A stretch of 64,000 nucleotides of DNA, taken from a virus. Its lineage: Duplodnaviria > Caudoviricetes. Below the pieces are notes generated by a model. It did no database searches and had not been told where the DNA came from. It was given only the letters and a program-made list of their open reading frames with translations. The DNA is taken from the IMG/VR virus record IMGVR_UViG_3300032225_002400, positions 1-64,000 of that record; one strand, written 5' to 3'. The position numbers and the translations under genes are program-made. This document shows, piece by piece, positions 15,285 through 23,201 of this stretch (its first letter is position 1; the number at the start of each line of letters is the position of its first letter).

Positions 15285-18200
15285 ATGAGTATGGAGATAA
15301 AAGTAGGAGATATAGGTATATTCTCAGGCCGTGTAGATAAAAAAGCTAAAGTTTTAAGAGTAGATGATACTTATGTCACTTATTTAGAAATTGATGAAAA
15401 TAAGAAAAAATATATTTATTTAGCAGATTTTAAAAAAAGGTTTAAAAAAGAAGGAGAAGGAGAAGTAAAGCAACAAAACAAAGAAATTAAAACAAAGGAA
15501 ATTTCTGATAATAAAAAAATTGAAAAGCCATCAAAGCCTTCGTACACAATAGTTGGAATATATTTATCTAAAGATAGAACAAATTATGAAGAAACAGAAA
15601 ATCTTAATCAAAAAGGTCTTTTAGGATATAGAATTAGATATAATAAAGAACCAAATATGTTTTTTGGAAATGTAAACTATTCTTTAGAAGATTTAGATGA
15701 GGCAAAAAAAAGAGTGGAGTATTCCAATGAAAATGCTGAAAAGCAAAAAGAGTTTAAGAAAATAAGAGACGCTGAGAATAAGATAAAAAGAGAAGAAAAC
15801 AAAATTATTGAGAAACAAAAACTTGAGACTGCAACTAAAGAAATTATAGCAAAACCAAGTTTTTTAATGACTTTGTCTGAATACCAAGAAAAAGTTGTAC
15901 CTATTTTATTACAATATCAAAAGTTTTTGAGAAAAAATAGTGAATACTTACAACCTGCTGATTATGAAGGAATTTATCAATATACATATCCTGAATTAGA
16001 GAAAGATTTTGAAAATAAGACAATAAAAGGTAGAAGATTTGCAATAGGTAAATATCAAGAAAATCCACTTGAAAATTTTAAAGCTTCACATTATCCTGAT
16101 GATGAAATAGTAGAGATGAATAAAAGTTTTGTGAATAAGCTTAAAAACTTTTTTACTGAAAGTGAAATTTACTCATTAATGTCAAAAGATGAGTATAAAT
16201 CAAACAAAAGAGCAGTTAAAAGAGCAATAGATAATGATACATACAAAAACCTATTAGAGTCTGAAGAATTAACAGAATCAGAACTTCAAAAAATAGCTGA
16301 CAGTGTAGACGTATCGATTCCAAAAAAAGTTTTTAGTGTAGAAAATGTTAAAATGAAAGAAATGCAACAAAAATTTGCAAAACTTTTATCAGATTTACCT
16401 ACAATTAATAAAGAACAATTAAATAAGTTAATTGAATCAATAAAAATTGATTTTAAACCACTTGAAGAAGAAGTATTCATAGAAGAAAAGTTGAAATACA
16501 CTCAAAAATTTAGAAAATTACTTGAAAAAGAAAAAGTTTATGTTTCATCTTTAGACATGACTATTAATATATGGGAAGATTTATTTTCTTATGATAAAAC
16601 TGGTTATGATAAAATAAAAACTGGTACGTATAAAACAAATTATTATACTAAACAAAAAGAAGAAATAATTGATGAAAGACAATATGTAATTGGTTTGAAG
16701 TTTAAATCAAATTGGGAAACTTTATTTGATAAATATTTAAAAAATTATACAGAAAGTTTAAAATATAGTTTTATTAATGCTATTATTAATAATTTTATAA
16801 GAATAACAAAACCAATAATAGAAATAGTTAAAATTCATATTGAATTAGGTGAAAGAGGTTTTGAAGGTGTTTATAGGTTTAAATTTGATGATGGAAGTTA
16901 TTTTGATTTCAAAGCAGAAGCAATTAGAGCTGGAGGGTATAATATACAAATACTTCATTTGAGATACATTACAAACTTTGAGAATATTACATTAGCAGAT
17001 GGAAGTAAAATTAAAGGGTATTATAATTTAATTGAAAACTTTAATATAAAAAGAATGAAAAAAGGCGGTTCATTAGGTGAAAATATTAAATGTGTTAATT
17101 GTGGTTGGCATTGGAATACAAATCAATCAGAAGAATACGACAAATATGTTTGCCACAAATGTGGTTTTGATAATACTACTTTTTATTCAAGCCAAATCAT
17201 GAAAAAAGGAGGAATAACACATGAAGATATTAAAAATAAAACTGATAAATATAAAGACATGTTGAAGAGACCTTCTAATTTGTTAAAAATATCTCAAATG
17301 CATAAAGTACCTTTATTCTTTTTACAATCTCAATTAATAAAAGGAATGAAAGTTGAATCAGAGCATACAACAAGAGAAGCTGTATCAAAAATTATTGCTC
17401 TTCATCATTTAGAAGAAGACCCTAGGTACTATATTAAACTTGAAAAAATAGAAGGTCATATAATGGCTGATGGTGGAAAAGTAAATAAAATAAAATATGA
17501 AATTAAAATAAAATCTCAATCTAGTAAAGGAAAAGAGTATGAGAAAGAATTTTATGCAAATGATATTTTATTAGCCACAACAGAAGCAAAATTTAAGGGT
17601 TATTCAACAAACCAATATGTAGGATATAATAATGCCTTGAGAATAGAATATTATTCTTCGTTAAATAAAACAGGCTTTAAAACGTTATTAGGTGAAGATA
17701 TTTTTAAAAATATTGATTTTAAAAAATACCCCTTTTATATATCTCATTTTAATAAGTTATCTTTAAAAGATATAAAAAATATGATTGATTATACTAATAA
17801 TGAACAAAAAATGTCTGATAGTGGAGATACTAAAAGTATTTTTTATAAAGGATATAAAATAGGCGATGATGGTATGTATAGACGAATGAATACAATGGCT
17901 AAAGGAGGAGAACTTGACCCAGATAATAAAGCTATTAAATCTGCTATGACACATAAAGCTGGTTCTGCTGGAGGATTATTAGTTGGTAATAGACATTCAG
18001 AAGGTGGAATAAAAGCAATAAATAAAAGTACAAATTCACCTATTGAAATGGAAGGCGGCGAAGTAGTTATAACCAGAAATGCTGTTAGTGATAATAAGAA
18101 AAGAGAATTTGAAGGCAAAATGATGACTAATAGAGAAATACTATCTAGAATAAATGAGTCTGGTGGTGGTGTTTCCTTCGCTTCTGGCGGTGATGTACCA

Positions 18201-18290
18201 TCTAGTTGTAAATGCTCTGGTAAATCGTATAAGTATGGTGGAAAAAGTGTATCAGATTATGATATTATAAATAGTATGAATAAAAATTAA
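15285..18290 (+). CDS. Large modular protein 1 (xxGG-delimited; Zn-ribbon, DUF5661-like and 'GNRHSEGG..EMEGGE' modules)
   Basis: 1001 aa; MKKGG x2, MADGG, MAKGG, FASGG separate unrelated modules. Confidence 0.8.
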   Translation: MSMEIKVGDIGIFSGRVDKKAKVLRVDDTYVTYLEIDENKKKYIYLADFKKRFKKEGEGEVKQQNKEIKTKEISDNKKIEKPSKPSYTIVGIYLSKDRTNYEETENLNQKGLLGYRIRYNKEPNMFFGNVNYSLEDLDEAKKRVEYSNENAEKQKEFKKIRDAENKIKREENKIIEKQKLETATKEIIAKPSFLMTLSEYQEKVVPILLQYQKFLRKNSEYLQPADYEGIYQYTYPELEKDFENKTIKGRRFAIGKYQENPLENFKASHYPDDEIVEMNKSFVNKLKNFFTESEIYSLMSKDEYKSNKRAVKRAIDNDTYKNLLESEELTESELQKIADSVDVSIPKKVFSVENVKMKEMQQKFAKLLSDLPTINKEQLNKLIESIKIDFKPLEEEVFIEEKLKYTQKFRKLLEKEKVYVSSLDMTINIWEDLFSYDKTGYDKIKTGTYKTNYYTKQKEEIIDERQYVIGLKFKSNWETLFDKYLKNYTESLKYSFINAIINNFIRITKPIIEIVKIHIELGERGFEGVYRFKFDDGSYFDFKAEAIRAGGYNIQILHLRYITNFENITLADGSKIKGYYNLIENFNIKRMKKGGSLGENIKCVNCGWHWNTNQSEEYDKYVCHKCGFDNTTFYSSQIMKKGGITHEDIKNKTDKYKDMLKRPSNLLKISQMHKVPLFFLQSQLIKGMKVESEHTTREAVSKIIALHHLEEDPRYYIKLEKIEGHIMADGGKVNKIKYEIKIKSQSSKGKEYEKEFYANDILLATTEAKFKGYSTNQYVGYNNALRIEYYSSLNKTGFKTLLGEDIFKNIDFKKYPFYISHFNKLSLKDIKNMIDYTNNEQKMSDSGDTKSIFYKGYKIGDDGMYRRMNTMAKGGELDPDNKAIKSAMTHKAGSAGGLLVGNRHSEGGIKAINKSTNSPIEMEGGEVVITRNAVSDNKKREFEGKMMTNREILSRINESGGGVSFASGGDVPSSCKCSGKSYKYGGKSVSDYDIINSMNKN

Positions 18291-23100: not shown

Positions 23101-23201
23101 CTATAAGCGAACAAAGTAATAATACTAAACAAGAATGGAAAGAATATTGTAAAGAAGTTGGTGCAGTAGAAAATTATAATTTTGGAGATGTTATAGCATA
23201 A
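20178..23201 (+). CDS. Large modular protein 3 (xxGG-delimited; KOW/SH3-like and DUF5824-like modules)
   Basis: 1007 aa; 10 xxGG motifs; 'VMRRGMGAFSSSHRPGMTRQGWGYARVNKF'. Confidence 0.8.
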   Translation: MQEYINKQIVQLEPITTLRDKQGFRFYSTNDGKTLYAEKNSKIYNVSEDSLQPIGEVPLAHRRFEFVGIVNDEDIAKLGILYYENQTFGRVRKQFGMAKGGQIEIGDYVKIKETYGGGSGIVEDIMNNFVVVKTKEGKKSYHLSDLIAYSSASEAAYDLGDEDNEDYEDDYAKGGQIALRDAKYTMSLAFDNAGFSKAFKDLKRLSNNVFLLQVSSYIKDNDTLQKIVKEFNETLKSNFVVDKNSFKKTFNGNEIKIENKTSMADGGELESKKQYLLEYLNNFPKNAESWRQATDEVRDIARMARITYLEVDEKEYEPLDFKTLKSPAEWNTLGREYITDMYNRMSDKAKKEFLDAFEHTFQNIKVGDTIRIKEGLGLGSLMNLEGEDLEVEKITRHYFASGTKKYYHVEYDGDKYEVREDFVDNERMEKGGELPTFTKEEWSKKQKDSKLKTEDGKYYIMKYDDEIGTYLQEVKVLEDGGELSKSQELKSKIEKILDKVLPGFYKNVFVRKNYFDNGEYIGIIMAASNYEINRVKGQYPQDVSLMLDVNDMDLHVQVFGGNGGNRIYLVPDKNDPKEKYLAMAGVKIPFRTPKKEEKFVLQAIEKFAESYKNALKENKDRLFYKEYVDYDTLIMADGGFVDKSDEELKSMNDDELFAYLDAKAAYMKQYKRPLSAYKAKNFAANATAVQYQKEGTSKLEDNFPDIKKINEQTSRDTSNYLNNKLENGGETTFEDKVKAIQKNLLKNKKVPAIVQKDYGKTYNKAEAKESAQRIVGAQTAKMMEMRNKMSKGGKTSVSPLKDRIIGSKKNKVGTASSKTSAKEIELSETIITSLSEKAKEYNNKHSKKVSTSTLKAVMRRGMGAFSSSHRPGMTRQGWGYARVNKFLLKKGGKKVKATYTQDDDLLENGGELKKEMKVSDKPKFKKLQELENKILHSRNRARNFMDWNEGSIGTNYNIKWQKMIKKLRGWDDYASISEQSNNTKQEWKEYCKEVGAVENYNFGDVIA

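Follow-up and report, generated by a model that had tools for sequence, protein, structure and literature searches.

In IMG/VR virus record IMGVR_UViG_3300032225_002400, three adjacent plus-strand genes encode large proteins made of many small modules strung on one recurrent Gly-Gly connector, hereafter called the joint. The window analyzed here is the first 64 kb of this 75,744-bp record, whose G+C content is ~28% and whose completeness is estimated at 66% by CheckV. An earlier note on this DNA had singled out the three open reading frames (ORFs), and its coordinates and lengths are confirmed. Protein A (15285–18290, 1001 aa) has a motif-free N-terminal part of 546 aa followed by 5 scored joints, and its modules include a Zn ribbon, a DUF5661 match and a C-terminal module that we call the H-module. 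Protein B (18309–20171, 620 aa) comprises 7 modules and 9 joints, three doublets included, and protein C (20178–23201, 1007 aa) ~10 modules and 9 scored joints.

A Gly-Gly connector selected at the protein level

The earlier note had counted about 6, 9 and 10 copies of a [MLFY]xxGG motif in the three proteins. All the pentapeptides that it quoted are present, and the regular expression [MLFYIV]xxGG matches A 7 times, B 9 times and C 10 times. The form M..GG alone occurs 16 times in A–C, against a single occurrence among the window's remaining ORFs of 60 aa or more. Every ORF of the 75.7-kb record was then scored with a 10-column matrix derived solely from 2105 sites of homologues in other genomes: with a score of at least 12, 23 sites were retained in A–C (5 + 9 + 9) and 1 elsewhere in the record, compared with 0.65 per shuffled proteome. 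Three of the sites found by regular expression are probably not joints, namely A547 IRAGG, A982 YKYGG and C888 LKKGG, the last one being inside a DUF5824 match.

The positions given here rest, except where stated otherwise, on codon and regular-expression listing together with matrix scoring, and all are on the plus strand. Protein A carries MKKGG at 17055–17069 (residues 591–595) and 17199–17213 (639–643), MADGG at 17463–17477 (727–731), MAKGG at 17895–17909 (871–875) and FASGG at 18177–18191 (965–969), at the end of the H-module. The single joints of protein B are MAKGG at 18450–18464 (48–52), MAEGG at 18690–18704 (128–132) and YKKGG at 18957–18971 (217–221), followed by the doublets FEQGG-Y-MADGG at 19173–19205 (289–299), MKKGG-Y-MAEGG at 19515–19547 (403–413) and MEKGG-Y-MAKGG at 19788–19820 (494–504). 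Along protein C are found MAKGG at 20466–20480 (97–101), YAKGG at 20688–20702 (171–175), MADGG at 20964–20978 (263–267), MEKGG at 21459–21473 (428–432), LEDGG at 21606–21620 (477–481), MADGG at 22080–22094 (635–639), LENGG at 22350–22364 (725–729), MSKGG at 22542–22556 (789–793) and LENGG at 22893–22907 (906–910).

A sequence logo, as the earlier note had proposed, was built from 120 homologues and reveals an eight-residue connector around the Gly-Gly pair, [K/Y]-[M/Y/F/L]-[A/E/K]-[K/D/E]-G-G-[E/K/S]-[V/T/I/L], with conservation spanning positions -4 to +3. The doublets previously noticed (MKKGGYMAEGG) are likewise seen, three of them in B with an exact 6-residue period (289/295, 403/409 and 494/500). 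In the family as a whole, arrays consist of 1971 singles, 286 doublets with the same exact period and 13 triplets, and the median module length between sites is 72 aa; as singles dominate, the joint is not a repetitive spacer. At the DNA level, the Gly-Gly codons of the 26 sites vary (GGTGGA 10, GGTGGT 7, GGAGGA 3, others 6) and follow the normal glycine codon use of the genes and of the genome, which indicates selection on the peptide and not on a Shine-Dalgarno-like DNA word. A Shine-Dalgarno-like signal (AAAGGAGG can encode K-G-G) was also rejected on the ground that GGAGG is present at merely 5 of the 26 sites, and internal start codons are unlikely since ~40% of the sites have Y, F or L instead of M. 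In sum, the connector is real and restricted to these proteins, and selection acts on it as a peptide sequence.

The sole scored site outside A–C, APMEDGGAVV, belongs to a single-pass membrane protein (30787–31194, plus strand, 135 aa) whose Pro/Ala-rich N-terminus ends in MEDGG (30907–30921). Its homologues keep [M/Y/F]-[E/G]-[D/E]-G-G down to 27% identity, with the same M/Y/F alternation as in the joints of A–C. Conservation of a joint in this protein favours a reader of the motif that acts in trans. The protein is a second candidate substrate, perhaps a membrane protein of the virion that is processed or docked.

Modules are exchanged as cassettes at the joints

The ~22 modules of A–C are mutually dissimilar, as the earlier note had stated: when 24 inter-motif segments were compared by BLAST, one pair only fell below an E-value of 0.01 (C2 versus C4, E 0.002). 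In Pfam, DUF5661 (17328–17453, plus strand, A 682–723; E 2e-09, 38.1 bits for a cut-off of 27) and DUF5824 (22713–22889, plus strand, C 846–904, containing LKKGG at C 888) pass their cut-offs. Weak hints of EF-hand/dockerin-like and KOW-like domains lend some backing to two of the labels proposed earlier on sight, and A–C have no PHROG match.

Homologues of B number 335 in a 90%-cluster database, and those of C amount to 2112 cluster representatives (1066 with an E-value under 1e-10); in nearly every case the similarity covers one or a few modules, arranged in another order. The BLAST alignments tend to end close to a motif or a terminus: a distance of 8 residues or less applies to 61–67% of the ends on the query side (13–22% at random) and, on the subject side, to 68% (21% at random). 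Modules that are N-terminal in the window virus are internal elsewhere, with joints on both sides, as in P0192 (...YADGG-Y-MEKGG-[C1 module]-MAKGG...) and P0017 (...YAKGG-[B1 module]-MAMGG...). Module C6 (21621–22079, plus strand, C 482–634) also exists as stand-alone proteins of 140–155 aa, which start just past one joint position, stop just short of the next and contain no connector-type motif. The joint thus coincides exactly with the borders of modules, in A–C as in hundreds of homologous proteins.

Regarding gain and loss of modules, for which the earlier note had asked that relatives be compared, the answer is a clean one. P0121 corresponds to C (91–96% identical) plus one 85-aa cassette, placed directly after MEKGG (C 428–432) and bringing its own YADGG at its end, with both flanks conserved. 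Cassettes made of a module and its trailing connector are gained or lost exactly after the Gly-Gly pair, and the view of these proteins as strings of unrelated, independently occurring modules with the motif at their borders is supported both here and in the homologues. Among GenBank phages, B has no relative and A and C match single modules only, proteins of this kind being absent from the cultured phages deposited there; IMG/VR pattern searches that used B, or just B 215–301, as the single query protein returned nothing.

A variant of the polyvalent proteins

Proteins A, B and C are best read as phage-type polyvalent proteins, a class already known in phages and conjugative elements (Iyer, Burroughs, Anand, de Souza and Aravind, 2017, J Bacteriol, PMC5512222). 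This assignment relies on larger homologues having the same modules and joints, which carry ART-PolyVal, LPD11, Zeta_toxin and Eco57I-type methylase domains; in these relatives the hallmark domains co-occur with DUF5824, DUF5661 and the H-module, and HExxH modules (HELVH type) are embedded in some joint-bearing relatives. By definition, a polyvalent protein is encoded by a phage or a conjugative element and unites 2–15 or more domains unrelated to one another; the ~22 modules distributed over three proteins agree with this, while A–C themselves match only DUF5661 and DUF5824. As in the proteins described, many unrelated small domains are present per viral polypeptide and the architectures are extremely mosaic. 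Unlike them, the junctions of A–C each bear a conserved 8-residue Gly-Gly connector at which cassettes are swapped, no metallopeptidase (MPTase) or other peptidase domain is embedded, and the modules are almost all unannotated.

Polyvalent proteins have been predicted to be delivered together with DNA and their domains to be released by embedded peptidases, the processed DarA and DdrB of phage P1 being cited in this respect, while the N4 virion RNA polymerase, plasmid ArdC and TraC1 are members of the class that are delivered uncut (Iyer et al., 2017; PMC5512222). DarA, which the earlier note had brought in as a parallel, indeed belongs to the same class. The text of that article contains none of the words glycine, linker, spacer and boundaries and does not mention the joint, and literature searches (motif, DUF names, Gly-Gly phage polyproteins) retrieved no prior description of it. 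While the polyvalent class is known, the Gly-Gly connector with its exact cassette exchange is thus a variant for which no description was found.

Distribution of the joint and of the H-module

The H-module (17940–18209, plus strand, A 886–975) is a region of ~80 aa, GGxLVGxxHxxGGI...QPIEMEGGEVVI, with invariant G, G, H, GG, E and E; it is very highly conserved across viruses and often located near the C-terminus of polyvalent proteins. A search of IMG/VR with it (alignment A2) yielded 42 loci, of which 22 belong to the window's own virus family and have the same glycosyltransferase upstream. The other ~20 are tailed phages resembling podoviruses, which encode a large terminase (TerL), a portal of P22 type and a capsid protein of SU10 type. 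In these phages the H-module stands alone between the small and large terminase genes, and lysine-rich, motif-rich proteins are encoded between TerL and portal. Joints being present in podovirus-like tailed phages as well, the motif is not special to one virus type. In marine representatives (loci L025, L028, L037 and L043; genomes G033 and G039 complete), the joint-filled proteins are very lysine-rich and 370–700 aa long, and are possibly internal head or ejection proteins.

The sampling of the distribution covered ~100 records. Seven new records, at least 55% complete, were sampled by a DNA pattern for the motif doublet, and 6 of them have the H-module. Record G012 (169,658 bp; loci L045 and L076) encodes polyproteins of 1939 and 1656 aa with 17 and 16 joints. 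It has no match to the packaging ATPase of the window and no Terminase_6C, and could represent either a distant relative of far greater size or an assembly chimera.

A zincin-like protein

The earlier note had pointed to the protein encoded at 40612–41418 (plus strand) as a possible partner of the three proteins. It is the sole protease candidate found, combining a carbohydrate-binding-module (CBM)-like beta-sandwich and a domain with HEFSH...ETEAD. Both the HExxH motif (HE[FY]SH) and a downstream acidic third ligand, which define zincin metallopeptidases, are conserved: none of H189, E190, H193, E203 and D207 varies among 11 sequences with identities as low as 39%. A confident structural model (predicted local distance difference test score, pLDDT, 85.7) shows the N-terminal CBM-like beta-sandwich followed by a helical domain. 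Residues 110–264 best match the M48 zincin BepA (Z 7.3, root-mean-square deviation 3.9, 111 residues) and then the putative Zn peptidase 3c37 (Z 6.2), although a Z below 8 can reflect a common arrangement; Foldseek returned 3c37 and abylysin at E ~0.02. Like M48 zincins such as Escherichia coli BepA, the protein has HExxH and a downstream acidic residue and a C-terminal domain that aligns best to BepA, whereas the fused beta-sandwich, the absence of a Pfam match and the middling Z set it apart from them. No Pfam or PHROG family was matched at E 0.01 or 0.001.

In metagenomes, homologue clusters number ~1200, one being named 'Zn-dependent protease with chaperone function'; the precomputed Pfam field is blank for the 120 clusters listed. 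The zincin is present in all members of the virus family with long enough contigs and is a core gene of a wider virus lineage. In the record, it sits in a cluster of small membrane-protein genes. G012 has a zincin homologue (40% identity) ~2 kb upstream of its polyprotein genes on the same strand, beside a weak match to the putative capsid gene of the window. This adjacency is confounded by the capsid-like gene alongside, which suggests distant kinship.

What the joint may do

The reading that we favour, tentatively, is that the joint is a recognition site cut after Gly-Gly by a protease. It builds on the enrichment of the motif, the variation of its codons, its position at module borders, the motif-free stand-alone modules and the exact gain of a cassette. 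Further points in its favour are the proteolytic release of domains predicted for polyvalent proteins, with the processed P1 DarA and DdrB as examples, the HExxH modules within some joint-bearing relatives, the conserved joint of membrane protein 30787–31194 and the place of the motif-rich genes between terminase and portal in tailed phages. A, B and C together string ~22 small, unrelated, independently folding modules on one connector; cutting behind the Gly-Gly pair, either within the virion or once the chains had reached the host cell, would free the modules as separate small proteins. Delivery together with the genome is suggested by the polyvalent-protein paradigm and by the position of the genes.

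Several findings weigh against cleavage. Six-frame searches of the 75.7-kb record, itself 66% complete, gave at E up to 10 no match to Ulp1 (C48, PF02902) or adenain (C5, PF00770), the proteases that the earlier note had wished to see sought, and none to prokaryotic JAB (PF14464), C39 (PF03412) or M23 (PF01551). A Pfam scan of 42 further ORFs within 13–62 kb found no peptidase among the best 25 of 59 families. The zincin, for its part, does not track the motif. Among the records sampled for this gene, 20 of 47 have a coding pattern for M-A-[K/N/D/E]-G-G (0 of 47 in the reversed-pattern control); zincin-bearing G068 and G075, estimated to be complete, do not have it, and the zincin is absent from the complete joint-carrying tailed phages G033 and G039. 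As a dedicated joint protease it was consequently rejected, zincin genomes being often without joints and joint-bearing tailed phages without zincin; as a joint protease of any kind it is a weak candidate, if the sole one in the record. The protein that the earlier note had proposed for co-expression thus resembles a zincin peptidase, but its occurrence is not that of the motif. In addition, the exact 6-residue doublets would, if cut, yield hexapeptides, which is odd, and few gene products end at ...GG; 11 proteins start with the motif, which are probably truncated gene calls and uninformative on cleavage. Finally, G012 has no H-module despite 33 joints in two proteins.

Known viral processing systems offer both likenesses and differences. 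The adenovirus protease (adenain) cuts (M/I/L)XGG|X, and pS273R of African swine fever virus (ASFV) cuts GG|X in pp220 and pp62. Here too, several mature proteins would come from a precursor cut after Gly-Gly with a hydrophobic residue upstream, whereas no clan CE protease was detected in the record and the modules of the window resemble effectors and not core or shell proteins. The earlier note had pointed further, to a model in which the polyproteins would be matured at (M/I/L)XGG by a cysteine protease of the adenain/Ulp1 type (clan CE), on the pattern of adenovirus and ASFV. The Gly-Gly pair before the putative cut and the hydrophobic residue upstream speak for this, as do relatives with inverted terminal repeats and the lack of Terminase_6C. 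We nevertheless hold it very improbable, given that six-frame searches of the 66%-complete record gave no C48 or C5 match at E up to 10, the different register of the site and the presence of the motif in tailed phages. The hydrophobic residue is at P5 and not P4, as each of the 23 scored sites and the logo of 120 homologues show, so that two residues separate it from Gly-Gly instead of the one of adenovirus sites, and phages with TerL, P22-type portal and SU10-type capsid show that joints are not tied to this virus realm. The head proteases of tailed phages, such as T4 gp21 (L/I-x-E) and phiKZ-like gp175 (S/A/G-x-E), use a short consensus for trimming packaged proteins in the capsid; they cut after Glu and mostly remove targeting propeptides. 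Like their substrates, the joint proteins of tailed phages are encoded next to terminase and portal, but the joint ends in Gly-Gly and sets apart as many as ~10 modules within a chain, and a prohead protease family did not turn up.

Alternatively, the connector could stay uncut, the beads-on-a-string protein remaining intact and each joint serving as a short linear motif for docking. Its reader could be a capsid or membrane component that loads the string into the particle, a translocation or chaperone factor by which small domains are threaded at entry through a narrow channel, or the H-module. We rate this as possible, if somewhat doubtful. An eight-residue motif shared by unrelated modules suits any sequence-specific reader, not just a protease, and no dedicated protease emerged from the searches of the record; the single conserved joint in membrane protein 30787–31194 also agrees with docking, and so does the uncut delivery of the N4 virion RNA polymerase, ArdC and TraC1 (PMC5512222). 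As for the H-module, the GG at its start is invariant, a joint closes it, and two virus types unrelated to each other have it together with joints. Its role as a reader is however speculative and, as an enzyme or a reader, it is unsupported: its AlphaFold2 (AF2) model is of poor quality (pLDDT 57.6), it could not be assigned to a fold or family, a profile run against PDB sequences returned no hit better than E 0.06, matches in a protein atlas are unnamed viral clusters only, and joint-rich G012 does without it. A loading tag would moreover leave the stand-alone copies of modules, which have no motif, as single modules without a tag.

That the connector is mainly an evolutionary trait, a shared in-frame recombination junction and tolerated flexible Gly-Gly hinge with little biochemical role, appears quite unlikely to us. 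The gain of a cassette exactly at GG between proteins 91–96% identical is what such a junction would produce, as is the reshuffled module order, with breaks at joints, among hundreds of homologues, and ~15 nt are common to many joints (ATGGCTAAAGGTGGA). However, the glycine codons vary and match the ordinary codon bias of the genome, the M/Y/F/L and K/D/E alternations keep the class of residue and not the nucleotides, and a passive hinge would not preserve the flanks at -4 and +2/+3.

Beyond cleavage as such, a broader proposal, which we consider unlikely, is that bacterial viruses have an undescribed processing system whose cutting code is this connector, in which precursors would be cut after GG and the repertoire renewed by in-frame swapping of cassettes consisting of a module plus its connector. 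A large lineage bearing inverted terminal repeats, probably tailless and membrane-containing, together with some tailed phages, would in this way derive dozens of small host-directed proteins from few precursors; the enzyme could be a virion zincin, the H-module or something unseen. Such a system would be the bacterial-virus counterpart of the maturation of adenovirus and ASFV polyproteins, with a built-in grammar of cassette exchange. Cleavage itself, if true, would extend to bacterial DNA viruses a polyprotein strategy that is elsewhere typical of viruses of eukaryotes.

Polyvalent proteins are regarded as toolkits with which phages and plasmids enter a cell, and ideas on how their domains come apart and how new ones are recruited are largely guesswork. 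The connector provides a testable handle on this question, as a conserved, codon-precise mark at the module borders of thousands of uncultured viral proteins. It leads one to ask whether a sequence-specific reader exists, be it a protease or a docking partner, and whether genes are captured by a cassette mechanism. Moreover, with module borders readable from sequence, hundreds of unknown small viral proteins can be parsed for anti-defence screening.

Genomic setting

The genes of A–C are preceded by a glycosyltransferase gene and followed by two genes of glucosaminidase-type peptidoglycan hydrolases. The latter adjoin each other directly after C (23213–23752 and 23755–24249), are endolysin-like, and the first one has a C-terminal hydrophobic anchor. 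Glycosyltransferase genes are unusually numerous in the window (4301–5506, 13774–15015 and, on the minus strand, 52241–58002); they include a homologue of T4-type DNA alpha-glucosyltransferase (PHROG E 5e-74) and a minus-strand block of four glycosyltransferase-like genes, and the one at 13774–15015 is syntenic with the polyprotein genes at 22 related loci. A fibre protein of 1643 aa (45687–50618) has collagen repeats and a C-terminal S74 intramolecular chaperone domain. Finally, IMG/VR assigns inverted terminal repeats to six relatives of 64–84 kb, three of them estimated to be complete (G029, G055, G061, G063, G078 and G079, reached via L023, L117, L131, L133, L152 and L153), which fits a linear, possibly protein-primed genome in this virus lineage.

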